Below are positions 2,369 through 54,040 of a stretch of 64,000 bases of DNA, in pieces. The notes under the pieces are model-generated. The model saw nothing but the letters and a program-made list of their open reading frames with translations, was not told where the DNA came from and searched no databases. The first letter of the stretch is position 1. Each line of letters begins with the position of its first letter. This DNA comes from Dictyostelium discoideum (lineage: Eukaryota): NCBI GenBank assembly GCA_000004695.1, contig CM000152.2:1152001-1216000 (forward strand), written 5' to 3'. The position numbers were made by a program, and so were the translations under genes.

Positions 2369-5300
2369 ATGAATAGTATTGAAAGTTCTTCTAATGATAG
2401 CAATGAGATAAATAAAAATTCAAACAAAAATAATACACACTTAAACTCCAACTATAATAATATTTATAAAAATAATAGCACTAGTAGTAATAATAATAAT
2501 AATCATAATAATATTGAAATTATTGGGATAGATAATAATAAAAATAATAATAAAAATAATAACGATAATAATAATAATAATAATAATATAGATAAAAAAA
2601 GAAAGGATAGTAAAAATAAACAAAACCAAGAAATAAATCAAGAAATGTCAGAAAATAAAAAAATTTATAATAGTAATGATAGTAATTGTAGTAGTGGTAG
2701 TAGTAGTGGAGGACATGTAAATAATGGTCATCATATATTAATTGAAGAGAATGAAAGATTAGAACATGAAAATCAAGAGATTCAAGAAATTTATAAACAA
2801 AAGGGTATGGAATTTCAAAAAAAAGATTTAAGATTTGGATATGATGTTAATAGTAATAATAATAATAATAATGGTGGTGGTAGTAGCAGTGGTAGTAGCA
2901 GTGGTGGTAGTGATGAATCTGCTTCAAATCAACCTATAATTAGAACTAGAAATAGAGAAGGTTCAATTTTAAATTTAAAGGTAAATTAAAAAAAAAAAAA
3001 GAAAAAAAAAAATCCAGGATTTCCAATATTTTCCAAGAAATTTCTTTATTTATTATATTAACTATTAAAAAATAAAAAATAAAAAAATAAAAAAAAATTA
3101 TTTAGAAACAAGGTCTTGTAAAAGAAATTAGTCAAAGATTTCAAACACCAGATACAGCATCATATACAAGACCAAATGCAAATAATATTTCAATTAAAGA
3201 TAAAATTTCTATATTAAAAAAGGAGCAAGAAAGAAGAAAACAAGATTCAGAAGTACAACAACGAGAAAAGGTTATAGTATTATCAGCAGATAGTTCAAAT
3301 ATTCAAATTTATCATCCCTCTGTTTTAATAGAAAAAATGAATAGTAAATTGGATACCGAAGAAAAGCCAGCAACAACGACAACAACTACTACTACAACAT
3401 CAACATCAATATCAACATCAACACCAACAACTACTACTACTACTACAACTAATACTTCTACTACTAATGATATTACAATTAAACCAAAAACATCACCAAC
3501 AAAAAATAATGAAGAAAGATCACAATCACCAATTACAACACCAAAACAACCAGTTGAAGAAATTGTTAAAAAAGTATCAACACCAAAATCAAATAATACT
3601 TCTAAAAAGACATCATCCGATACAACACCAACAGGAAAAACAACTAAAAAAGATAAAAAAGATAAAAAAGATAAATCAAGAGATAGTGGTAATTTAGTAA
3701 TTGTTAATAATACTAATAATACTAGTAGTAATAATAACAATAATAATAATAATAATAATAATAATGAAACAATTATAAAACGTAGAGGTAGAGTTTTAGT
3801 TACACCATCAAGTGATTTAAAAAAGAATATTCAAATTTATTTTACAATTCCAATAAATCCACCAGTAAATAAAACCAATAAACCAAATCAATTATTATCA
3901 AATACATCACAACAATTTTTAAAAACATTAATTTCAAATGAAATTCCAATCGATTGTAAAATCAATGATATCAACGATACTGATGCATTTTCCGATTTAT
4001 CAGCATCAGCATCATCATCATCATTTATAACAAAATCATCACAATCATTATTAAATGTGCAATCATTAAGAGTTAAAGCAATTAAAACATCATTTAATAT
4101 TTTATTTTTAATGCCAAATCAATCTAAAAAGATTTTACAAGTTAAAGGTTCAGATACAATTGAAAATTTAAAAGAAAGAATAATTTCAGATTATTTATTT
4201 AATAATAATAGTAATAATAATAATAATAATTGTAAATATGGAGCAGATTCTTATTTAATATTAGATTTTAATGATAATCCAATGGAAAGAAGTTTAGTAT
4301 TGAATAAAAGTGATTATATATTAGATAAAAGAGCACAAGGTTTAATACCAAAATTAAAAGTTATTGAAAAATCAACAATTTTAGATTCAGATCCATCTGA
4401 TGAATTATCACCAAGTGAATATGAAATTATTAGAAAATTAATACCAGGTACAGATACATGGAGAGGTGAAGAAGTTGAATACTTTAGAAGAGTTACAAGT
4501 AGATTAAGATATGAAGCATTACCATTGATTAAAGGATCAATTCAGTCTACTCTATTGGTTAGATTATCACCATTACCAATACCAATAGTTGGTAATAAAA
4601 TATTGATTTCTATATTTTTACCAATTACTCAAGTTACTAAAACATTGGATTTGGAATTGAATGAAACTGCCGATCAATTTACAAATAGATTATTTACAAA
4701 AAATTATTCAAAACATTTACCAAATGTAAATTCAAATGATTTCATATTAAAAGTAGTTGGTAGTTCAGATTTTATTCATGGTCCACATGATATTCGTACT
4801 TTTGAATCAATTAGAAATCATATAATTCAAGGTACAAAACCACAATTAACATTAATTCAAAGACCAAAACCAGAATTAGATCCACAACCATTTAAACCAC
4901 GTTTTGATTATCCACCAGAATTAATAATTGATCATAGTTGTAGTAATGCAATTAATTGTAATAATAATAATACAAATAGTACAAATAATAATAATATAAA
5001 TTTTGATAATTGGGATCAAATTACACATATTTCTATTAGAGAAATTAAAAAACCATTTAGAGTTAAAGTTATGGGATCAACTAGAATACCATTATCATGT
5101 ATTAAAGATATTGATAGTAGTAGTGTTATTGTTTCAATTTCATTATATCATGGTATTGAATGTTTTTCAAAAGCATTCACTCAACCAATTATACCACCAC
5201 CATTTGCATTTTTAGCTGAAACTTTATCAGTTGATTGGTGTGAATGGTTAGTTTTTACAAATATTGATTATTCAAATTTACCAGTGGATGCACGTTTATC

Positions 5301-7209
5301 AATTAGTGTCTATAGTGCAAATGAAACAGTTGATGATGTTGAAGAAATTAAAAATCTTGATGAAGCAACTAAAAAGTTAACACCAATTGGTTGGATTAAT
5401 GTTATGATTACTGATTTTAAATATCAACTTAGACAAGGTATGGTAGAATTATCGTTATGGCCATCTGATTTTTCAAATCCACTTGGTACTTGCTCAAATA
5501 ATCCATCAAGTAGTCAATCAGTTGGTTTAACATTAGAATTTGAAGAATTTAATTTACCAGTTTTATTCCCAAGAAAAACTAAATTCTCTACAAGTGTCTC
5601 AGTTATTGAACAACCACCAACCAATATAAATTCAAATGAAATGAGAGAATTCTTTGAGCAAATTACAGCATTAGACCCATTATCAGATTTAAAACAAGAG
5701 AAATATAATCAACTTTGGACTTTAAGACATTATTCAATTTTATTCCCACAAGTTTTACCAAGATTAATGTTAAGTGTACCATGGACTCAAGCAACTGCAG
5801 TAGATGAAGCAATTTCATTACTTGATAGATGGCCAAAACTTAAACCTTATGAATCATTGGAATTATTGGATGCAAAACATGCAAATAGAAAAGTTAGAGA
5901 ATTTGCAGTTACATGTTTAGAGGATCTTAGTGAAGATGAACTATTAGATATTCTATTACAATTAGTACAGGTTTTAAAATATGAACCATTCCATGATTCA
6001 AAATTATCAAGATTCTTATTAAGAAAAGCAATTTTAAATAGAAATATTGGTCATTCATTCTTTTGGTATTTAAAATCAGATTTACATGATAGTAATTTAT
6101 CAGAAAGATTTGGTATACTTTTGGAATCTTATTTGTATGCATGTGGTGCACATAGAATTGAGTTATTAAAACAAATGGAAGTTATTAATAATTTAACAGA
6201 GGTTGCAAAGAAAATTAAACCATTAAAAGATCAAGATAGAAGAGAATTTATGATTAAAGAATTTGAAAGTTTAGAATGGCCAAAACGATTTCATCTTACT
6301 TTAAATCCACGTTTTGAATCAAATGGTTTAATAATTAATAAATCAAAATATATGGATAGTAAAAAGTTACCTCTAAGATTATCTTTTACAAATACCGATA
6401 TGAACGCTGACCCTATTGAAGTGATTTTCAAAGCTGGTGATGATTTAAGACAAGATATGTTAACTTTACAAATGATTAGATTAATGGATAAGTTATGGCA
6501 AAAAGAAGGTTTAGATTTAAAATTATCTCCCTATGGCTGTATTTCAACTGGTGATATGATTGGTATGATTGAAGTGGTGTTAAATTCTGAAACCACTGCT
6601 AAAATTCAAAAAAGTGAAGGTGGTGGCGCTGCTTCCGCTTTCAAGTTGGATCCTTTGGCCAATTGGATATTGCAACATAATAAAAGTGATATGGAATATC
6701 AAAAAGCTGTAGACACATTCATACTCTCTTGTGCTGGTTATTGTGTTGCAACTTATGTACTTGGAATTGGTGATAGACATAATGATAATTTAATGGTTAC
6801 AAAAGGTGGTAGATTATTTCATATTGATTTCGGTCATTTCCTTGGTAATTATAAAAAGAAATTTGGTTTCAAAAGAGAACGTGCTCCTTTTGTTTTCACT
6901 CCTGATTTTTGTTATGTAATGGGTGGTAAAGAATCTTTTAAATTTAGTCAGTTTGTAAATTATTGTTGTACCGCTTATAATATCGTTAGAAAGAATGCTA
7001 AATTATTTATGAATTTATTCGCTATGATGGTTTCTACTGGTATTCCAGAATTACAATCTATGGAAGATTTAAATTATTTAAAAGAATCTTTTTCAATAGA
7101 ATTATCTGATGAAAAAGCAAGGGAGAAATTTGTTGCTTTAATTCATGAAAGTTTAGCTACAAAAACTACTCAACTTAATAATTTTTTTCATCATCTTGCA
7201 CATGCTTAG
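2369..7209 (+). CDS. pikA: Class I phosphatidylinositol 3-kinase catalytic subunit with an Asn-rich N-terminus, Ras-binding/C2/helical region and PI3/PI4-kinase catalytic domain; exons 2369..2980 and 3106..7209 (1571 aa)
   Basis: The catalytic region carries FKAGDDLRQDMLTLQMIRLMDKLW and GIGDRHNDNLMVTKGGRLFHIDFGHFLGN (DRH and DFG motifs). The first ATG after an in-frame stop is 2369, because the ORF-track start at 2339 is a TTG. A phase-0 intron runs from the AAG|GTAAAT donor at 2981 to the TTTAG acceptor at 3105, and both exons are open in frame. The spliced length of 1571 aa matches my recollection of D. discoideum PI3K1. Confidence 0.85.
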
Positions 7210-9693: not shown

Positions 9694-12600
9694 TTAATTT
9701 AAACTTTCAATAAAATCTTTTAAAGTTTTTAAAATTTCATTAAAAGTGAAACCATCGATTGGATTCCAACATTTATGAATAAAGTTTTTAATGTTTGGAT
9801 CAATTTTATCTAAACCTATTGATGGTTTTTCTTGGCCAAATTTGCGAGTATCACCAACTAAAATTTCATCAATTAGTAATTCATAAGATAAGACTGCAAA
9901 TGAATGAATATTATACTTTAGTGAACTACTATTATTACTATTATTACTATTATTATTATTATTATTATTATTATTGTTGTTGTTATTATTATTATTATTA
10001 CTATTATTACTGTTATTAAAATCATTGTTTTGTTTTGGATCTCTTATAATTGAAATTTCTCTGGTTAAATTAATTGGTGTATCAACTCTTTCTATATAAT
10101 TATTACAAGCTAATCCTTTAATAGTTTTACTTGATGTTAGATCTAATACTTTAGCACAAACCTCTGCATTTTCATTGGTATCATAAAGGAAAATATTTCT
10201 AGCTCTTAGAGTTTTTTGAATGATTGAACTTTGTTGAAGGAATTTACAACCTTTGGCAACATCAATAAGAATTCTAATCTTTTGAGTGATTGACATTTTT
10301 AGTTTCTTTTTTGAAATTATATAATCCAAACTTCCAAGGGGTGGATATTCAAAGGCTAAACATAAATAATCCTTTGAAATTACACAACCAATCAATGGTA
10401 AAATATTTTGATGTTTTAATCTACTAATAATATTTAATTCTCTATAAGCTTCTTCACAATTTTTTGTTTTTAACTTTATCAATTTAAGTAAAGCATTTTT
10501 ATCTCCAACTGTTCCTCTATATAATATCTCCCATGAATATTTCTCTATCAACTCTTGGAAATGAATATCATTAAAATCCAATCTTGTCGAGGATTCACTT
10601 TCAACCTTTATTTTGAGTAGAGTATACATTTCTTTAATATTATTTGAATTGATTTGAATTGAAAAATTTTCAAAAAACCTTGTTGTACAATGTAAAGTAA
10701 TTGAAAATTTTATTGAAAATGTTTCACCTGGACCAAGATCAAATGATGAATGATCTGATGTAAAAGTGGCTGAATGATTATCCATTGGTAAAATTAAAAA
10801 TGCTGTAAATCTTATTGTTGAATCATTTGTAATTGAAAGAGTATCATAATAGGTTTCACCTAATTTTGCTTTTCCATTAATTAAACCAAATGTTATTATA
10901 CTTTGATTAAACCTTAATGGGAAATTTGAAAAATCTTTAAAATCTGATAATGCGCAACATGTCAATATATCATTTGTTGTTCTAAATGAAAAATCTAATC
11001 TCTTTTCTCTTTTTAATATTTCAAATGCTAATTTTTGAAATTCTAAAGTTTGAAATTCATCTGGAAATGTACTATTTATAATTGGTATTGTATCATTACT
11101 AATTTCATCAATTTTAAAACTTTCTAATTTATTTGAATAAATTTGATAATTATTATTACCATTACTGTTACTATTACTATTACTATTACTATTACTATTA
11201 ATATTAATATTACTATTACTATTACTATTATTATTACTGTTACTATTATTATTATTATTATTATTATTACTATTACTATTACTATAATTACTATTACAAT
11301 TACTATAAATAATATTATTACTATTATTATTATTACTATTATTATTATTATTATTATTATTAAAATAATTATTATTATTTAAACTTTGATTTTTAAATTT
11401 ATATCTATTATTATTTTTTGGTATTTGATTATTAAATATTGAATCTGATGATATTGTATCTAATATTGATATTGATGGATAAGATGAATGACTTGTAATT
11501 TTTGGTAAAACTTTAATTTCAATTTCATTATTTTGGGCATATTCAATATCTTTATTTGATTTTGAGAGGAATTGAGATAATCTTTTTCTATGTTTAACTA
11601 TTAAAATTGTAATGATTGATAAAGCCAAAGATCCTAAAACTATTGATAAAACAATTGCCAAAATAGCTGGTTTACTAGCTTTAACACTTTCAATGGGTAA
11701 TAAGGTTGGTGTTATTGGATCAATAATTTGAGGTAATGAATCACTAACTGAAAAGATTGCCAATGATGTTAAATAAATATCACCACGACTTGTGAATGAA
11801 ATATTTAAAAAATCGAGTGATTGTGTGTTATTATAAACAAATGTTAAATTTTTTGAAAAAGGTTGATCGCCAGCGAATGGTTCCATCACTAAAACTGGAT
11901 TTTTTTGAATAGATACAGATAATGGACTTGAATATTGATCGATTGGTTTATAAAAAGTGAAAAATAATTGAACTTGTAAAGTTGCTATTGATTTATTAAT
12001 AAATAAATCAATTATAACTGGATCATATTGAACATCTGATGTAATTCCCCAAGAAAATAAACTATTTAATGTTGATGAGGCTGTAACATTTGGTAAACCA
12101 CCAACATATTTTGCATTACTTGAAAGTTGGCAACCTAAAGTTTTTATACAACCACCTTGAAATTTTAAACCATCCAATTCATTTATTTTATTATTATTAT
12201 CATTAACTAATTGATTATTATTTGTTGTTGTTGGTGTTGATGTTGATGTTGATGTTGATGTCGATGTTGGTGTTGGAGTTGGTATTATTGTTGTTGATGT
12301 TGGATCAATCATTTGCCAACCAGCATTAAATAAAGATTGTCCATAAACAGTTATAATTGGAAAATCAATTATAAAATAATAACTTGAATCTTTAGAATAT
12401 TCATTTTTAATTGTAACACGAATATTATGATTACCTAATTTTTCAGATACATAAAGAAAACTACATTTTGTTGAGATTGGATTATATTGAACCTCTTTTG
12501 ATTCCATACCATTGGATGAGAAAATACAAATGATTGGAGTTTTTAAACCCATATTATTCAATTTAACTGAAAGAGAAACTGAAGAATTGAAAAACATTTT

Positions 12601-14399
12601 ATGAGGTTCATTTGGATAAACAGTTTCAACTTTTAATGAATCCAAAACACTTTTACTAAAATAATAAATTGGAGTAATCGATGACCCAAATACTTTTTCA
12701 GGTGGTTCAGTTGTTTCTGGTGACCCATAAATATAAGTATTTTGAAAGTTTGTGACTGTAGTTGTTGTTTCATCAAAAAACTTTTGTGTTGAAGTTAAGT
12801 TTGTATTAAAACTTGAATTTATAAAATCTAATCTTGAAACTGTACCATTGAATGAAAAATTTTCGGTTGCATTTAAATTATTAAATACTAATGCACTATT
12901 TGGTAAATAAGCTGAAACTGTATCTGATGCTACTAAATCTTTAATTGTAAAAAATCTTCCTGGTGAATTACCATTATTATTAATATTTAAAAGATAATGA
13001 TTTTGTGAATTATTATTATTATTATTATCATCATTATTATTATTTTCATTATTAATATTTAATAAGTTAAAATTGTTTGTATTATTATTATTATCATTAT
13101 TATTATTATTTAATTTATAAAAATAAGTTGAATTATTAATTTTAAAATCAACAGGATATTGAATTAAATTTGAAAATAAAATTGAAGTATTTGTACAAGG
13201 TGAGTAACAATCATTATCAAAACCTGTTATAATGGACCTATTACCAATGAAATTAAAATTAAGAGCAATCAATTGAGAAATAAAAGTATCATTTATTGAT
13301 TGAACATTTGGAGATAATGAATAGATTCCATTACCTTCAAATCCATAATCCATACTAAAAGGTGAAGGAAAATTGATAGGGGAATTTAAACCGAACGGTT
13401 GTGGTAGTGGTGGTATTAAAAAGTAATGATTTAATTTTGATTTTATAAATTCAGTGCCATATTGAGCGATTAAATTTGAACCTGATTTACTAACTATTAA
13501 ACTCTCTGATAATGATACATTTGAACTAACGAAAATGAGTGGTGCTCTAGATTCTTTAACTCTATCAATGATAGCACAACCTTTTATAACTACACTATTT
13601 GAAAATTCTATATACAATGAGTTTCTAAATCTTTGATTTTCACCCTTTATTATATCGATCACTTGATTTGGTTTATCATTTGAGAAAATTAATTTCGTAT
13701 CATTATAAAGTTTATTGGTGGTTTTACCTATTGAATCCAATGTAAAATTTTCAATTTGAACTTGTGAATCACCAGTTATATATATAGATGATCCAACAGT
13801 CGATGTAGAATCTATAAATGATTCACTTGAACCACCTAATAAATATTTACAATTAAAATGAACTATTATATTTTTATCATTTTTTGAAATTGGTAAACAA
13901 TTGGTTCCTCTTAATGATGACGATGATGATGATGTTAAATTAATTTTATCATTACTTGCTCCAAATGAAAATGAACATGTTTGACCTTCTGAAATTTGTT
14001 GACTATAAATTGTAACTTTTGAACCTAAATATATATTGTTTGTCAATGATCCTATTTTTTTGAAATCTTCAATTTGTAATTGATAATCATCAATTCTAGT
14101 GGCTTGGAAAATTCTTTTTTTCTCTCCAATCAATGATAATGATCCTCCCAAAACCATCATACCTGGAAAGAAATTAAATGGATCCATTTTTGAATTATAA
14201 GGATCTAAATCTGTAAATCTGATACTTGATTTACTATTTAATACACCACCTGGTAATATAAATAAAGCTCCAACATTAAAAAATGATATACCTTCTGGAA
14301 TTTCTAATGTTCCTTCAATACATAATACATTAATTTTATAAATTGGTATTCCACCATTACCAACTCTGTATTTCATTTTTGTCCCTATTTAATAATTAT

Positions 14400-40385: not shown

Positions 40386-41519
40386 TTATAATAGATTTCT
40401 TTGTTTTAACCATTGAATATTTTCATTAATCATATATTCTAAAGTTTGAGATTTAAAATTTAATTGGTTATTTGCTTTGGTTGAATCGATTACAAAATTA
40501 ACACTTTGAATACAAGAGAGGAAGAAAGATTGATAAGGTGTTGGACGTGGTTTTGATTTCGATGCTTTTGTAGTTTTAAAATCATCATCCGCTAAAGAAT
40601 CGGTTGCTTCTGATGAAATTGGTTTAATAGTGGTTGAAGTGGTTGTGGTTGAAGTTCTGCCAAACCATTTGGCCATTAAATCATTCATTTTACCTGTTAG
40701 AATATATTTCAATGGGGAAACGGCAACAACAGGTTTTTCAATCGAGAGTTGAAATAAAACTTGTTCATAAAGTTCCTTCCAACTGATCAATGTACCACCT
40801 ATACAATAGTCACTTCCATTTGGTGCAACCTGTGCTGCTGTTATATGAGCCTTGGCAACCTCGTCCGCTGATGAAAAGTTGGTTTTACCTACGCCCACTG
40901 ACACAGTTTGAGAAGCTTGATGAGCGACCATTAATATAAACGAGCCAACACTATTTTCATCATATTTTCCAATGATAAAGCCCGGTGAGATGATCACCGC
41001 CTCCAATCCCCTACGTATGGCATCCTCCACATATAGCTCGCCAATTCTCTTTGTACGCGAATAACCAGACCTTGGTAGATTCTCTTTTGGGCATTGTTCA
41101 TTGATGATTCTATCTTTTACATCGTAGCATGCTATTGTGCTTGTGTAAATCAATCTTTTTACACCCTTTTTGAAACATGCCTCTACAACATTGGCAGTGC
41201 CATTTACATTGGTTTCGTATTGTTGAATTTGTTGTTCCTTCATTGATTGTTGTGATTCACTTGCATCTAAATCAATGAGAGCTGCAGCATGAAAACAGTA
41301 AAGACATTCATCTGGTATACCTTTTAACAATGATTTATAATTTGTAACATCACCTTTAACCAATATCAATTGATCTTGTTTATTCAATCTCTTTGCTATT
41401 GAATTTAATTCTAATACTTTATTCTTATTTCTATATAATGCATAAACTTGATATCCTTGAATTAATAATTGTTCAACTATATTACATCCTAAAAATCCAG
41501 TTGACCCTGTTACAAAACA

Positions 41520-41591
<72 letters not shown>

Positions 41592-41618
41592 GTTATTTAT
41601 ATTTATATTTTCACTCAT
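40386..41618 (-). CDS. NAD(P)-dependent epimerase/dehydratase (extended SDR, 3beta-HSD/cinnamoyl-CoA-reductase-like) with a poly-Asn N-terminus, single exon, 410 aa
   Basis: Rossmann motif CFVTGSTGFLGCNIVEQLL, the catalytic YxxxK in SGYSRTKRIGE, and overall extended-SDR architecture. Confidence 0.65.
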
Positions 41619-43937: not shown

Positions 43938-44416
43938 ATAATATTTTTTTGGAATAAAAAAAAAAAAAAAAACACATCGATTTCATAAATATTTTTTTTA
44001 TTTTTGTTTTTTTTTTATTTATTTATTAATATAAATTTATTTATTTTATTTATTTATTTATTTTTTTAAAAAAAAAAAAGTCCTAAATTGGGGTTTTTAA
44101 GTTTCATTTATTTTTATTTATTCATTTTATTTTATTCAATTATTTTAAATTATAATTTTTTATTTTTATTTTTTTTTTTACTTAATTATATGATATTTTA
44201 CAAAAATTGTGGGAATTTGTGTTTTTAATTATTAATTCATTAAAAAAGGTAAAAACAAGCAATATGTTTTGAAAAGTTAAAAAAAAAAAATTTAAAAAGG
44301 AATTTAATAATTTTTTTTTTTTTTTTGTCCCACAGAGGAATTGTTCAAACCAAGAGTACTAATAGTTCCTTTTTTTATTTTTTTATTATTAAAAAATTTA
44401 AAAAATTATTTGTTGA

Positions 44417-44450
<34 letters not shown>

Positions 44451-45001
44451 ATTAAAAAATCATTTGTGTTTAGAAAAAAAAAAAAAAAAAAAAACACATA
44501 CTACAGCTTATTTATTATTTGTATAAAAAAAAAATAAAAAAATAAACAAATTTATTTGTCCATATTGTTATGTGAGTACAAACAAATAATTAAATAAATT
44601 ATATTCACACACTCACACTTCACACATAACACCACAAACAAATTAATATCATTCACTACTCATTTATTTTCCCACTCTTTTTCATTATTATTTCTTCTCA
44701 CACTAATTTCAAAGTACCACTACCATTTTTTTTTTTTTTTTTTTTTTTTTTATTATTATAATAATAATTAACAAAATTTTTTAATTGTAAAAACACTCAA
44801 CTAATACTATTATTATTGAGATATTATTGTTTTTTTGTATTGTTTTTTTTTTTTTTTTATATTGAACACACTTTACAAAAAAAAAAAAATAATAATAAAT
44901 TACTAATAATCTTACCTTCAAACTATATTATAGTTATTTATTTATTTTTTTTTTTTCGAAAAAAATATTATTATTAGTTTCTATATGATTTAATATTAAA
45001 A

Positions 45002-45064
45002 ATGCTAAATTTTATAGTTTTATTTATTTTATTTTTATTATGTTCACCCTCTTTACAAATTAGT

Positions 45065-45095
<31 letters not shown>

Positions 45096-48000
45096 TTATT
45101 AAATCAATACTAACAAAAAAAAAAAAAATTAATAAAAAAAGATATAGAAACAGGAGAAAAACAACCAAATATTTATAAAAATTATGATATATCAATACTT
45201 AAAAAAGAATATGAATCAATAATTAAGTAAATATTTCCAAAAAAAAAATAAAAAAAAAACTTTTCCAAAAAAAAAAAAAAAAATTAAAAATTTTCTAATC
45301 AACTTTTTTTTAAAAAAAAAAAAAAATAGAGATCATAATATAAATGATGTTGATTATGAAAAAGATTTATCAAATATATATACTCAATTAAACAATATAC
45401 AGTTTTCAAATATTACAAATTTTAATAATTTAGGTTAGTATATTTTTATTTTTTTTTTTTAATTTTTTTTTAATTTTTTTTTTTTATTTTATTAACTCTA
45501 TTTTTTTTTTTAGATTGGTTTTTAAATTTAATTAATAATCAAACAAATATTAATAATGGTATCGAAAACAATAGTAATAATAATGAAAATATTAATGAAA
45601 AATTAAATATTGGTATAATTGTTTCAAGTTTTGAAGGAATGTATTCAACATCTGGTATTGGTACAGTTTATTCTATACTTTCAGATTTTTTAGTAAAGAC
45701 TGGTAAATATAATGTTACAGTAATATATACAAGAGATGATCCACCCGAGAAAAAGAGTTTTTATAATTGGAAAGTCGATCTTAAAGAGAGAGGTATCAAT
45801 TTAGTTCATTTACCATCATCTGTGATTAGAGTTGATAATCCATTGTTTGTTAGAAAATCCTATCAAGTTTATCAATATCTCAAGACTCAATCATTTGATG
45901 TTTTACATTTCCCAGATTTTGAAGGTATGGCATATTATAGTTGTTTGGCCAAAATCAATGGTGTAGAGAAACAATTTCAAAATGTTACCATTGTAATTGG
46001 TCTTCATGGTCCATCTTCTTGGGTTAGTAAATCAAATACAAAAAAGGTCTCACTGGATCACGATCAAGTTGAATTGGATTTTATGGAAAGAAAATCAGTT
46101 GAAATGGCCGATATCATTTGGACACCAAGTAATTATATCGTTAGTTGGTTAATAAAAGAGGTTGGTTGGACAATTCCACAAGAGAATCTTTATCTATTAC
46201 CTTTTCTTCCACCTCCATCTCCATCAACTGCAATCACCAACAATAAGAAAACTTCAAGTTCAATTAAAGAAATTGTATTTTTCGGTCGTTTAGAACAAAG
46301 AAAAGGTATAGTTTTATTTTGTGATGCTTTAGATCAATTGGTTTCAAATTCAAATTATAAATCATTATCAAATTTAAAGATTACATTTTTGGGTCGTTCT
46401 TCTGATATCATCGTTACTGAACCAAATGGTGGTGGTGGAAAGGTTGATGCAATTTATTATATTAGAGATCGTTCAATTAATTGGCCATTTGAAATTAAAT
46501 ATTTAGATGAAAAATCATCAAGTCAAGCAATCGAATATTTAACTGATGATTTACATAAATTGGTAGTTATTCCATCATTAGAAGATAATGCACCTTATAC
46601 TCTCTATGAATGTCTTTACAATAGAATACCATTCATTGCTTCACATCAACTTTCAATGGTACCACTTATTGAATTAAATGATCAATCTACAGTACTCTTT
46701 GAAATTGATTCTAAATCATTATCAGAGAAATTAGATCAAATTTTATTAAATGGTAAACATTTAATTGGTCATCCAATCATTTCAAAAGAAAAATCAGAAT
46801 CTGCTTGGTTAAAATTTTATTCAACTACAATTTTTACAAATTCAATTAAAAATAGAAAACAATTTATTTTAAAATCAACACAACAACAACAACAACAACA
46901 ACCATTAGTAACAATATGTTTAACTCATTTTAATAGACCAAACTTTTTAAAACAATCAATTGAATCAATTGAAAATCAAGATTATAAAAATTTTGAAGTA
47001 ATTTTAGTTGATGATGGTTCAACTTCAATTGAATCAATTGATTATCTTTATTCATTAAAAGATAAATTCAAAGAGAAAGGTTGGAAAATTATTATGACTG
47101 AAAATAAATATTTAGGTGCTGCTCGTAATACTGCTGCCTCTCAAGCCAAAGGTAAATATTTAATGTTTTTAGATGATGATAATTATATGTATCCAAATGC
47201 AATTTCAACCTATGTTTCAATCGCTACAAATACAAATGCCAATGTTGTTAGTTCACCACATTCAATATTTAATTCAACCAATACTCCAATATCAAATGAT
47301 GTTATTATTCAAAGACAATGGGTACCATTAGGTCCATCACTTTCCGTTGGTCTCTTCAAGAATTGTTTTGGTGATGCAAATTTCTTTATTGAAAAGTCAT
47401 CATTTAATTCAATTGGTGGTTTCACTGAGGAAGTTGGTGTTGGTTTAGAAGATCATGAAATTTTGGCAAAACTTGTTATTCAAGGATTTAAACTTTCCGT
47501 TTCAACTGAACCATTATTATACTATAGATTCCATGATTCAGTCAATCAAATGATTTTTACAACCGATTCAAAATCAAATCAAATGCGTTATATTCGTCCA
47601 TTCTCTGAAATCCTAAGTAATGGTCATGTTCCAGTACTCAAGGTTTTAGCAAACAATGCAATTCATGCTCAAAGTAAACGTGTTTTGGTAAACACTTGTA
47701 ATATCACGCTTTCATCGATCCATCCAAATTATGGTCCAACTTCTGGTGGTTCATTGGTATCTATTAGTGGTTCTGGTTTTAATTGTGGCATTAGTAATGT
47801 ATTGTTTGGTGGTGCTGCATGCTCAAATCCAAAGGTTAAAACAGATGGACTCTTAACTTGTACAACTCCTTCCTCTGATAATAATGGTCCAGCTGATATT
47901 GTTGTCAAAGGTTCTGATGGTAGTACCGTTACATTAACTGAAGCCTATAACTATGTTTCAACCATTGCAATTACTTCATGTGCACTCGGTGCAAACAATG

Positions 48001-51000
48001 GTAATTTCTTTAGTTGTGATATCTCTTCTCCAGTTGATACTTCAAATAGGCCTTCATGTAGTTCTCTTTTCTCTTCTGCAACTTTACAAACTTTGGGTAG
48101 TTCTCCAAGATGTGAATATACTGCTTCAAACATTCTAATGGTTACATTGGGTAGTGGTGAAAGTGTATCAGTTGGCCAACAATTGGAATTTTCTCAAGGT
48201 GGAATCACTTCAAAAGATGGTAGTAAGAATAATTATCAAACTATAACATTGGAACCACCACAAGATTCAACTCCAGTGGTAGATATTAAAGCTCCAAATG
48301 TTTTAGATTCATGTAGTCCATTGGTATTAGATGCTAGTCATTCAAAAGGTGGTAATGGAAAAGCATTAACCTATGATTGGTCGGTTAGTGGGGCAGATAC
48401 AAACACTCAATTAAATAATCTATTGGATCAAAATAATGCAACCATAACAATTCCAAATGATCTTTTGTCATCTGGTCAAACTTATACTTTTACACTTAAA
48501 ATCACAAATTGGTTAAAGAAATCTGATAGCGCAAGTGTTTCAGTAACAAAGAAAGAGGGTGAAGTTTTAGATGTAACAATTCAAGGTCCAAGTATTCATC
48601 GTATGGGTGCAATTGATCTAACTCTTAAAGGTAATGCTTCAGTTTCAAGTTGTTCAGTTGATGGCGCTTCACAAAACACCAACACAATCAAATATAAATG
48701 GTCAATTGTTCCAGAGATTCAATTGGCAAGTTCAAAAGATTATACAGGTCCAACTTTAAATATTCCTTCAAGTAAATGGGTTTATGATACAACTTATGTT
48801 ATTACATTAACTGCAACCTCTGGTAAAGAGACAAACTACGATAATGTTACAGTTATCATTTCAAAGAAACCAATCACTGCAGTAATTGATGGAGCCGATA
48901 AAGAATTCCCATTAAATACTTTAATAACTTTAGATGCTTCAAAATCTTTTGATCCAACAACTACTTCAACAGTTTCCAAAGAACTTGATGATTCAACCTC
49001 TACACAACAACAATCATTTACTTATGCATGGAGATGTATCAATAAAAGTGGCAAAGATTGCGGATTAAATTTAGAATCTGAACCAATTATTACATTTAAC
49101 TCTTCAAGATTGAATGTTGGTGTTTTCCATTTCTCTGTTGATGTTACCCCAAATGGTGATGCCACAAGAAGTGGTTCTGCTAGTGCCACTGTTACCATTG
49201 TAAATACTCCAGTAATTGATGTTATTATCTCACCATTACCAACAACCATTGATCCAACTCAAAAATTGGTACTCTATACAGTAGTTAGTGGTAATGATGC
49301 ATCTTCATCAAATTTAACCTATGAATGGAATATGCTCGAAGGTACTCTTGAACTTCCATTAAAACAAGCCTATAGTACCCCAATGAATAGTAGAAATTTG
49401 GTATTAAAGGCTGGTGCACTCGGTTCAAAAGTTGTCTATAGATTTTCAGTAGATGTTAAAAATAAGAAAACTGGTGCCACTGGTAAAGCAATGGTAACAT
49501 TCACCACTGAAGCAATCCCCCAAGGTGGTGATATCACTTGTTTAACAACAAGTGGTGATGTTACCGATACCTATTCAATTACAATGGGCGATCAATGGAC
49601 TGATAATTCTGGTATTAAATCCTACAATTTCCGTTATCGTGTAGGTAGTGGCCCAGCAATCGCACTAAGTGAATCCTCCTCTGATAATTCTATCTCTACA
49701 ATTCTTCCACCAGGTCAAATTACAATAATTGGTTATGTAACTTCAAATGATGGTATCACTGCAAGTAAATCATGTAAAATTCAAGTAAAAGAAGCAAGCA
49801 ACATTGAGGAAGCAATCAACTTTTTAAGTACAACTATAACCAATCCAGATGTTTCACTTTATCAACTTAGTGTAGCATTGAAAATTGCCAATTCATTGGT
49901 TCCTGAAACTTTGAGATTAGCCAAGGCATCATCAAAGAATGTTGTTTCAGAAACTGATGAACAATTCCAAGTTATAATGCCAGAAACTCCACAATCTGCA
50001 AATAAAGTTGTATTTTCAAAGAAACCAACCAATCCATACCTTGAACAACAAGAAGAAACAAAACAATTTGATCAACCAACAGTAAATAAGAAGATGTCAG
50101 CAGCTGCAGTTGCCACTCAAATATCTCAATTTAAAGCCAATGGTATTCGTCAAGTAATGGACCAGGTTGTTAAACAAAAAAAACAACTCTCAAACTATGG
50201 TATTTCAACAGTTGTCGATTTGATATCAACCTCTACAGATACTTCAGCAGTTGTTCATCCATCAACTCTTAAAGAATCAATGAATATTATGAAAGTAGTT
50301 AGTCCAATGATGGTTAAATCACAAGTTTTACCAAGTGATTTCATTTTATCTGTTAACTATTTAAGTAATGTCAATCAACAAGTCATTGGTCAACAATCAA
50401 ATATCACTCAAGGTAAAACTGCACCAACCTATGCTGATATGGTTTATAATGTTTCTTCAGACATTTTAGTGGTATCCAATTCATTGGCAGATGGTATTCT
50501 TCAAAGAACTGCAATTGGTGAAGAACCATTTACAGTTGCAAGTGATAAAGGTTTCTCGATTACAACATTTAAAACTCTACATATGGAATTAAGTAAGAGT
50601 GGTCAATCGATTGGTTTCAAAAAGGATGATGAAGGTCAATCTCTTGATGGTGAAAAACTTGCTTTCACTCCAAAATTCAGTATTCCATCAAGTGTTTTAT
50701 CAAAGAATAAATTAAAACAAACCTCTGAAATCACTGGTAAACTAATTACAGTTCCATCAAATATTCATTTCAATCATAAATCTGATCAAACCATTTTCCC
50801 AAAAACTGTTTCACTTGAACTTTTCAATGGTGGCTCTCAATTATCAATCAATGGCCTTAAAGATCAAATTATCATTGATATGGGAAAACATTCACCACCA
50901 AAAGATAAAGAATTTAAATGTGGTTGGTGGAGCTCCAATAAAAAAGAATGGTTAACAGATGGTTGTTCAACCCATAAAGTAGATGGTAATATTCAATGTA

Positions 51001-51965
51001 AATGTAACCATCTTACAGAGTTTGGTTTAATTGAATTTGCAAAATCCTCTCAAAACATTTGGATCATTATTGGACCAGTAGTTGGTGGTGTTGTATTTGC
51101 AGCTGCAATGGTTGGTACTGTTGTATTGGTAAAGAGAAAGAAAAACAAAAACAAAAAGAACAAATCAAAGAAAACCAAAGAACAAATCAACAAAGAAAAA
51201 GAAGACAAAAAGAAACAAGCAAAAGAAAAGAAAGAAGCTGATAAATTGGAAAAAGAAAATAAAAAGAAAGAAAAAAAAGACTCCAAAAAACAACAAAATG
51301 ATAATGCTGAAGCCTCAGGATCTGGTGATCTTCCAATACCAAAGAATAAAAAAGATAAATCCTTTGGTGATGAAAATGATGTTCAATATATTCTTCAAGA
51401 GTTTAAAGATATCTTTGCTGAAGCTAAAAAGAGAGAACAACTTAAACTCTTGAAAAATCATCAACCAATTTCACCTGTAACTTCAATTGGTAATGTATCA
51501 AGTACAACTTCAACTCCAATAACTTCTACAATTCAACCAGTTATTGATGAATCTTCAAGTAGTAATAATAATAATGATAACAGTAATACAACAACTACTA
51601 CAACAACTACAACTACTACAACAATAAATGATAGAGATAAAGCAGCCAAGACAATTCAAAAGGCATGGAAAAATTATTGTAGTATCAAACAACTTAAAAA
51701 AGAAGCTGAAGTTGAAGAATTACTTGAAAATATTGGTGAATTGTTATCTGATAATGAAAGAGATCCATTTGAAAATTATCAAACATTAGATACTCAAATC
51801 GATGATGATGAAGATAATGATCAACCACAAGACGATAACAATAATGAATCAAACGAACAAATTGAATCAAATGAAGATATTGAAAATAAAGATGAAGATG
51901 TTGAAAATAAAGATGAAGATGTTGAAAATAAAGATGAAGATGAAGAAGATCAAATCGAAAATTAA
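45002..51965 (+). CDS. Large type-I membrane protein with a signal peptide, GT4-like (GT-B) glycosyltransferase domain, GT2 (GT-A, DxD) glycosyltransferase domain, IPT/TIG domain, at least 4 PKD/REJ-like repeats, a GPS motif, one TM helix, a Lys-rich tail with an IQ motif and an acidic ENKDEDV x3 repeat; exons 45002..45062, 45142..45226, 45330..45433, 45514..51965 (about 2233 aa)
   Basis: Three short introns (GTAAGT 45063, GTAAAT 45227, GTTAGT 45434; acceptors AAAAG 45141, AATAG 45329, TTTAG 45513) link a signal peptide MLNFIVLFILFLLCSPSLQI to the 2108-aa ORF in phase. The GT4 domain shows IGIIVSSFEGMYSTSGIGTVYS...FFGRLEQRKGIVLF...VVIPSLEDNAPYTLYECLYNRIPFIAS. The GT2 domain shows VTICLTHFNRPNFL...EVILVDDGST...LMFLDDDNYMYPN. 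The IPT domain shows ITLSSIHPNYGPTSGGSLVSISGSGFN. REJ-type repeats show LDASHS...YDWSV, YKWSI and YAWRC. The GPS motif is CGWWSSNKKEWLTDGCSTHKVDGNIQCKCNHLTEFGLIEF, the TM helix is IWIIIGPVVGGVVFAAAMVGTVVLV, and the IQ motif is KAAKTIQKAWKNY. Confidence 0.8.
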
Positions 51966-52267: not shown

Positions 52268-52401
<134 letters not shown>

Positions 52402-52492
52402 GTTATTGTTTTTATTTTTATTACTATTAGTAGTATTATTATTATTTATTATTATTATTTATTATTATTATTTATTATTATAAAAATATGAT

Positions 52493-54040
<1,548 letters not shown>

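Follow-up and report, generated by a model that had tools for sequence, protein, structure and literature searches.

What does a protein do that carries two glycosyltransferase modules in its N-terminal part and, behind them, the stalk of a polycystin-like receptor? The question is raised by a gene of Dictyostelium discoideum lying in a 64,000-nucleotide stretch of contig CM000152.2 (assembly GCA_000004695.1, positions 1,152,001 to 1,216,000 of the forward strand), referred to here as the window. Four exons read in frame on the + strand (45002-51965) give a protein of 2233 amino acids (aa), whose closest protein matches are those of D. discoideum and its near relatives. We favour, with a probability of roughly 60%, the reading that this is a membrane-tethered polysaccharide polymerase of the secretory lumen, with an ectodomain releasable by GAIN autoproteolysis. 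Domains were assigned by a Pfam profile search of the 2233-aa protein against curated cut-offs, and folds by AlphaFold2 models compared with the PDB by Foldseek.

A two-site glycosyltransferase cassette

The first question is whether the N-terminal part is an enzyme and, if so, of what kind. It holds two glycosyltransferase (GT) modules:

45600..46763, + strand: GT4 module (GT-B, retaining), residues ~113-500, matched by Pfam Glycos_transf_1 and Glyco_transf_4
46899..47633, + strand: GT2 module (GT-A, inverting), residues ~546-790, matched by Pfam Glycos_transf_2 (E 1.1e-24)

An initial annotation of the window had placed a GT4-like GT-B domain and a GT2 GT-A domain with a DxD motif in a single polypeptide, and both assignments are borne out by Pfam profiles and by the predicted folds. 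In the first module, Glycos_transf_1 scores 31.8 bits against a cut-off of 26.4. Glyco_transf_4 reaches 26.9 bits, slightly below its cut-off of 28.5, and is the sole domain call, besides an IQ motif in the tail, to pass by neither profile nor fold; matches to these two profiles are also recorded in the orthologs. The GT4 motifs are SGIGT (residues 130-134), FFGRLEQRKG (339-348), and the EX7E-type PSLED441NAPYTLYE449. Those of the GT2 module are VDDGS (582-586), FLDDDN (635-640, with DDD at 637-639), and GLEDHE (727-732), and its sequence matches in the PDB include the chondroitin polymerase K4CP of Escherichia coli (E 1.6e-12) and the heparosan synthase PmHS2 of Pasteurella (E 9.7e-9). The AlphaFold2 model of the cassette has a predicted local distance difference test score (pLDDT) of 85 and a predicted template modelling score (pTM) of 0.87, and its GT4 module displays the alternation of strands and helices of the Rossmann type. 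Foldseek matches the cassette model to the GT-A enzymes SpsA, TarP, K4CP, and PmHS2 (E ~1e-12 to 1e-13) and to RmlT; the sole GT-B chain among the top PDB matches is 6eji (TMt 0.73).

GT4 and GT2 form one colinear cassette and are not two independent additions. Bacterial proteins of ~2000 aa, retrieved with the full-length protein, match residues ~111-800 at 33-39% identity, and a scan of GTDB genomes finds the fused GT4-GT2 cassette at no fewer than 561 bacterial loci, including those of Klebsiella pneumoniae ATCC 13883 and Raoultella. The Klebsiella open reading frame (ORF; L045:9992-12214) encodes 740 aa and is adjoined by a divergent ORF of 269 aa; it is named WbbY here because its length and its divergent 269-aa WbbZ neighbour agree exactly in size and arrangement with wbbY and wbbZ as published (PMC4237132). 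Residues 116-780 of the Dictyostelium protein align with WbbY colinearly over 677 columns, at 36% identity and 56% similarity (E 2e-130). This match strengthens the earlier description of the arrangement as bifunctional and polysaccharide-synthase-like: WbbY is the polymerase of O1-antigen D-galactan II, and its two GT modules make both linkages of the ->3)-alpha-Galp-(1->3)-beta-Galp-(1-> repeat from UDP-Galp (PMC10629545).

Substitution E318A abolishes the alpha1,3-galactosyltransferase module of WbbY (PMC10629545). In the alignment, E318 of WbbY corresponds to D441 and E326 to E449. At the first of these GT4 carboxylates every amoebal copy has Asp and bacterial copies have either Asp or Glu; E449 is kept in at least 90% of bacterial and amoebal copies. 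In an alignment of 14 bacterial and amoebal sequences, FFGRLExRKG, VDDGS, DDDN, and the Glu-Asp of GLEDHE either do not vary or are shared by at least 90%. Because the catalytic residues are conserved in bacterial and amoebal copies alike, the alignment argues against the modules being a dead, lectin-like domain.

The likeness to WbbY thus lies in the order of the modules, GT4 then GT2, and in shared catalytic motifs. The bacterial enzyme differs in being a 740-aa cytoplasmic protein that extends the lipid-linked O2a glycan, in having Glu as its first GT4 carboxylate where the amoebal protein and some bacterial relatives have Asp, and in lacking signal peptide, IPT, REJ, GAIN, and transmembrane (TM) helix. 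K4CP and PmHS2, both glycosaminoglycan polymerases, offer a second comparison: each holds two alternating active sites in one polypeptide and makes a disaccharide-repeat polymer, and both match the Dictyostelium GT2 module in sequence and in fold. Unlike the Dictyostelium protein, they are soluble or peripheral bacterial enzymes, and the match covers the GT2 (GT-A) module only, the partner in the Dictyostelium protein being a GT-B GT4.

An active cassette need not polymerise. It might instead attach an alpha/beta disaccharide, as a short cap or side chain, to glycoproteins of the secretory pathway, such as mucin-like spore-coat or sheath proteins, or to N- or O-glycans in transit through the Golgi. 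The same catalytic evidence would serve such an enzyme as well as it serves a polymerase; GT2 and GT4 include many non-processive members, TarP, RmlT, and SpsA stand beside polymerases among the fold matches, and the acceptor is not predictable from sequence. However, WbbY, the only characterised homologue found to match the whole fused cassette, is a polymerase with alternating sites, and the GT4-GT2 order, retained in 561 or more bacterial loci, agrees with a reaction whose coupled steps repeat. We regard a non-polymerising transferase as unlikely, and polymerisation by the cassette as the better account.

The stalk, the GAIN domain, and the membrane anchor

If the cassette is a polymerase, why is it mounted on what resembles a receptor? 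The remainder of the protein comprises the following:

47709..47933, + strand: IPT/TIG domain, residues 816-890 (Pfam TIG, E 1.5e-10), with PDB sequence matches to the IPT domains of plexin and Met
48270..49874, + strand: PKD-like repeats and REJ module, residues ~1003-1537 (Pfam REJ and K319L-like PKD)
49800..51041, + strand: GAIN domain, residues ~1513-1926, with helical subdomain A and beta-sandwich subdomain B
50916-51029, + strand: GPS motif, with the predicted cleavage site H1916-L1917|T1918 at 51009-51017
51057..51131, + strand: single TM helix, residues 1932-1956, followed by KRKKNKNKK; conserved in orthologs
51132..51962, + strand: cytoplasmic tail, residues 1957-2233 (277 aa), with a Lys/Glu-rich stretch
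51363-51416, + strand: conserved tail block FGDENDVQYILQEFKDIF, of the form FGDEN..YILQEFKDI from D. discoideum to Clastostelium
51642-51701, + strand: IQ-like tail block AAKTIQKAWKNYCSIKQLKK, with AAxxIQxxW[KR] across Dictyostelia and Clastostelium
51708-51752, + strand: acidic tail block EVEELLENIGELLSD, of the form E.E..L..I..LL.D...DPF from D. discoideum to Clastostelium
51871-51942, + strand: ENKDEDV acidic repeat, a 21-bp tandem array of 3.4 copies with 98% matches

The IPT/TIG domain and REJ/PKD repeats proposed earlier are both recovered. Pfam REJ matches at E 4.9e-81 (273 bits), its best stretch, residues 1129-1537, covering model positions 2-451 of 452; the K319L-like PKD profile matches in four stretches (1e-14), and LDAS..W repeats begin at residues 1020, 1119, and 1221. 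The canonical GPS that had been placed before a single TM helix with a tail beyond it is also there, as part of a genuine GAIN fold. Pfam GPS scores 33.7 bits (E 5.4e-8, cut-off 22.5), with cysteines C1886, C1901, C1912, and C1914 and the sequence CNHLTEF at 1914-1920. An AlphaFold2 model of residues 1500-1960 (pLDDT 75, pTM 0.74) has a helical subdomain followed by a beta-sandwich and sets H1916-L1917-T1918 in the turn between the last two strands. In the PDB, Foldseek ranks five GAIN domains highest—those of BAI3 (two chains), BAI2, CELSR1, and latrophilin-1—at E 2.4e-11 to 3.1e-8 and probability 1.00. The HLT triad and the four GPS cysteines are kept in Dictyostelia and in Clastostelium. 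Arac et al. 2012 (PMC3321182) had already pointed out a GAIN domain in Dictyostelium.

Only two segments of the protein are hydrophobic, residues 1-23 and 1930-1958, and the ectodomain holds 15 N-glycosylation sequons. Since there is a signal peptide and only one TM helix, the protein is predicted to be a type I membrane protein with both transferase modules lumenal or external.

The tail is conserved in places, and it probably directs trafficking or regulation. An IQ calmodulin-binding motif had been proposed for it, but this falls below the Pfam threshold: the IQ profile (PF00612) finds no match in the 2233-aa protein even at E<=10, and the best ortholog, that of Acytostelium, stays at 16.3 bits (E 0.0079), short of the 20.3-bit cut-off. 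Calmodulin binding, as far as the sequence goes, is possible. The acidic ENKDEDV repeat reported earlier is present as the 21-bp tandem array listed above; its copy number varies between strains, and no sign of a specific function was seen. The tail sequence EVEELL fits the dileucine pattern [DE]xxxL[LI] but is not strictly conserved, so no sorting claim is attached to it.

The modules of the stalk invite another account, in which the protein acts at the surface as a receptor or mechanosensor, akin to polycystin-1, the sea-urchin REJ proteins, or adhesion G protein-coupled receptors (GPCRs). The REJ-GAIN part would sense matrix or cell contact, the GT-like domains would bind glycans and not act as catalysts, and the tail would relay the signal, for instance by way of an IQ-like calmodulin site. 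As in polycystin-1 and the sea-urchin REJ proteins, a large REJ module with PKD-like repeats is followed by GPS/GAIN directly before the first TM helix, and REJ together with GAIN is typical of receptors. The single TM helix, which the initial annotation had thought novel behind a REJ-GPS module, is already found in SpREJ1, 8, and 9, and one-TM SpREJ1 binds fucose sulfate polysaccharide and triggers Ca2+ entry (PMC1934368). The three tail blocks conserved from Dictyostelium to Clastostelium, one of them IQ-like, and the score of the Acytostelium ortholog on the IQ profile would also suit a signalling protein.

The differences are, however, substantial. The Dictyostelium protein has enzymes at its N terminus and lacks PLAT/LH2, an 11-TM or channel region, C-type lectin, WSC, and LRR. 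A polycystin-1 orthologue was rejected on finding one TM helix only and no Pfam match to PLAT even at E<=1, and an adhesion GPCR on finding one TM helix and no Pfam match to 7tm_2. Because PLAT, 11TM, and 7TM are absent, the protein is neither a polycystin-1 nor an adhesion GPCR despite the modules in common. The resemblance to the GAIN domains of latrophilin-1, BAI2/BAI3, and CELSR1 extends to the two-subdomain fold, a GPS with four cysteines and a tryptophan, and an H-L|T site before the last beta-strand; sequence identity to them is ~10-14%, and the Dictyostelium GAIN leads into one TM helix where theirs leads into a 7TM bundle. With one TM helix and no 7TM bundle, a tethered agonist has no obvious target, so cleavage would more plausibly serve shedding; without a 7TM, 11TM, PLAT, or channel domain there is nothing for such an agonist to activate. 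Moreover, pseudo-enzymes usually lose the catalytic motifs that both GT modules conserve in bacterial and amoebal copies, and the IQ motif is below threshold in the D. discoideum protein itself. A receptor or mechanosensor is on these grounds decidedly improbable. Of the two roles first suggested for the protein, a shed polysaccharide synthase appears from the sequence to fit the evidence better than a sensor coupled to Ca2+/calmodulin.

Integrity of the gene

The architecture is unusual enough to ask whether it is carried by one gene. The exons are as follows:

45002..45062, + strand: exon 1, start codon and signal peptide (MLNFIVLFILFLLCSPSLQ...), with a hydrophobic window at residues 1-23
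45142..45226, + strand: exon 2, in frame between GT..AG introns, matching annotated orthologs residue by residue
45330..45433, + strand: exon 3, in frame between GT..AG introns, matching annotated orthologs residue by residue
45514..51965, + strand: exon 4, residues 84-2233 and stop codon, with the splice acceptor at 45513/45514

The proposed four-exon model of about 2233 aa holds in every part: the introns (79, 103, and 80 nt) are all GT..AG, and the product agrees from residue 1 onwards with KAM9963093.1, an independently annotated D. discoideum protein of 2230 aa: of 2215 aligned residues, 2186 (98.7%) are identical, and the differences fall mostly in homopolymer and repeat tracts. Hydrophobicity of the N terminus is kept among the orthologs. 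Exon 4 contains an unbroken ORF of 2108 codons (45639-51965) that runs from inside the GT4 module to the tail, and it shows neither a stop nor a hidden intron around 47600-47700, where a boundary between two genes had been envisaged. Because the ORF is uninterrupted between the glycosyltransferase part and the REJ/GPS part, the two belong to a single polypeptide. An artefact of annotation or assembly, by which these parts were separate genes or the upstream exons foreign, would draw on the first three exons being short, AT-rich, and inferred from sequence alone, but its likelihood is negligible given the continuous ORF, the canonical splice sites, the residue-by-residue alignment of the N-terminal exons with independently annotated orthologs, and the recurrence of the architecture once per species in more than 10 annotated genomes and on single complete TRINITY transcripts.

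Distribution and origin

How widely is the fusion spread, and where did its parts come from? A search with the full-length query yields 17 orthologs, with one gene per species in Dictyostelia, where full-length orthologs occur in Dictyostelium, Polysphondylium, Synstelium, Cavenderia, Acytostelium, and Heterostelium. The taxonomic profile that had been suggested as a check for confinement to dictyostelids shows no such confinement, and the orthologs extend across Eumycetozoa: Clastostelium (Protosporangiida) and Echinostelium (Myxogastria) also have them, and others lie on environmental contigs. For both Clastostelium and Echinostelium, single TRINITY transcripts marked complete span the entire architecture. 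The fusion is therefore found in all three eumycetozoan clades, all of which form walled spores on stalks.

One Heterostelium album model (P0011, 2238 aa) is without the GT4 N-terminus and the GPS strand and has Pfam matches to TPR_19 and RMD1-3. In D. purpureum an RMD1-3/TPR gene (L082:1186-1933) lies directly upstream of the ortholog, and the Heterostelium model may be a mis-merge with its upstream neighbour gene.

The REJ-GAIN part was traced separately, by an exhaustive HMMER scan of 1.84e9 representative proteins, which gave 798 relatives at E<=1e-3. Among the best 150 of these 798, a GT cassette occurs only in members or fragments of the eumycetozoan fusion family; the nearest relatives outside the family share ~26-31% identity in REJ. 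In a neighbour-joining tree, drawn without support values, the amoebal cassettes form one clade, whose internal order follows the species groups and which is embedded among diverse bacteria. The sequences suggest a single ancient transfer from bacteria to eumycetozoans and then, in the common ancestor, a fusion of the cassette to an IPT-REJ-GAIN-TM module. A polymerase cassette of bacterial O-antigen type would then have been captured by a eukaryote, moved to the secretory lumen, and kept throughout the history of Eumycetozoa. In the literature searched, no description was found of a WbbY-type polymerase fused to REJ-GAIN, nor of a bacterial origin of the fusion or its conservation across Eumycetozoa.

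Proposed function

How, then, would the parts work together? On the polymerase reading, the retaining GT4 and the inverting GT2 would alternate as in WbbY, and the product would be an alternating alpha/beta-linked polysaccharide of matrix or spore wall, galactan-like or Gal/GalNAc-like. Synthesis would take place in the Golgi or post-Golgi lumen and, in Dictyostelium, in prespore vesicles. The long stalk of IPT, PKD/REJ, and GAIN would hold the cassette and may also bind glycan. With the H-L|T site 14 residues before the TM helix, autoproteolysis would give a non-covalently joined pair, consisting of the catalytic ectodomain (residues ~20-1917) and a membrane stub of 316 residues, and the enzyme could be released upon fusion of the vesicle with the cell surface. 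The tail would serve sorting or regulation. GAIN/GPS autoproteolysis would here be found in a non-receptor setting, in which it tethers an enzyme and may release it, and this bears on the role of the GAIN domain before adhesion GPCRs and polycystins arose.

Several observations weigh against this account. The HLT triad and the GPS cysteines, in the alignment columns of residues 1885-1920, are lost in Echinostelium bisporum and four related orthologs (P0013-P0017), which have no Pfam GPS match and keep GT cassette, TIG, REJ, and single TM. Their GAIN-like region is probably non-cleaving, so cleavage would be a lineage-specific refinement of Dictyostelia and Protosporangiida; because these orthologs have lost the site, cleavage does not appear essential for the core function of the family. 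An identity of 36% to WbbY is too low to transfer donor or acceptor specificity, and the setting differs too, since WbbY works in the bacterial cytoplasm and its acceptor is lipid-linked. Golgi glycosyltransferases are mostly type II, not type I, membrane proteins. Lastly, the conservation of the tail suggests that it is more than a passive anchor.

A candidate for an orphan prespore enzyme

Might the polymer, and hence the gene, already have a place in Dictyostelium development? We know of no report that identifies the gene for the prespore UDP (uridine diphosphate)-galactose:polysaccharide transferase, an activity first described in the 1960s; according to Sussman and Lovgren (1965), the enzyme is reportedly particulate and released at culmination. 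Titles cited in PMC2113895 and PMC4831088 document the transferase activity in prespore cells. In Dictyostelium, the spore coat receives a Gal/GalNAc polysaccharide that is secreted from prespore vesicles (PMC2115956; PMC2323390). The likeness to the present protein is that of a galactosyl-type, polymer-extending enzyme expected in the secretory pathway of an organism whose prespore vesicles make Gal/GalNAc polysaccharide.

We infer a link between the gene and the orphan transferase tentatively; that the gene encodes this enzyme, acting as the polymerase of the Gal/GalNAc spore-coat polysaccharide and freed at culmination by GAIN autoproteolysis, is conceivable, though doubtful. Were it so, GAIN would be a programmed release latch for an enzyme and not a receptor switch, and the ancestor of all fruiting amoebae would have acquired the catalytic cassette from the O-antigen machinery of bacteria. 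In a genetically tractable organism, the gene is a concrete candidate both for a Gal/GalNAc polysaccharide of spore coat or matrix and for a classical orphan enzyme of development.

Upstream region and neighbouring genes

One element upstream of the gene is a candidate for its control:

44596..44641 (core 44606-44641), + strand: CA-rich element CACACACTCACACTTCACACATAACACCACAAAC, ~360 bp 5' of the ATG; candidate promoter element

The CA-rich element noted earlier is real, with the core as given. It is the only clearly intergenic element of such composition in the 64-kb window, the others lying in or beside ORFs. Its position and sequence are kept in D. citrinum and D. firmibasis, at an equal distance to the ATG, and the D. 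purpureum ortholog has GTGTG-rich and CCCCACACACA blocks upstream. We take it to resemble the GBF-binding CAE/G-box elements of post-aggregative and prespore promoters.

Further upstream, a 54-bp direct repeat (2 copies, 86% matches, 44391-44494 of the window) contains AATCATTTGTG..TAGAAAAAA, a motif also conserved, as one copy, in the upstream DNA of the D. citrinum and D. firmibasis orthologs. The repeat may be a promoter element, or a 3' end signal of the upstream SAP-domain gene.

At 40389-41618 on the minus strand, 3.4 kb upstream, lies a gene of the NAD-dependent epimerase/dehydratase family (SDR), encoding 410 aa with a poly-Asn N-terminus. It was considered as a UDP-sugar epimerase clustered with the glycosyltransferase gene. 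This idea was dropped because the closest relatives of the protein with a solved structure are vestitone reductase, cinnamoyl-CoA reductases, and a sterol dehydrogenase, and not UDP-sugar epimerases; no functional link is evident.

Downstream, a (TTA)67 microsatellite (89% matches, 52277-52481) adjoins a LUC7-like gene on the minus strand (zinc-finger exon 52493-52963). Local synteny is conserved here, since in D. citrinum and D. firmibasis, too, LUC7 comes next downstream of the ortholog.

Elsewhere in the window, an aconitase ORF at 16708-18747 on the minus strand (Pfam 7e-139) coincides with a sharp peak in G+C content (1-kb bins of 43% and 37%, the background being ~20%); overall, the window has a G+C content of ~22%, and its intergenic DNA is very AT-rich. 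Two ordinary Dictyostelium signalling genes are also present: a class I phosphoinositide 3-kinase with Ras-binding, C2, PIK, and kinase domains (3337-7209, + strand) and a 1560-aa protein with a C-terminal kinase domain of the TKL type (9697-14376, minus strand).

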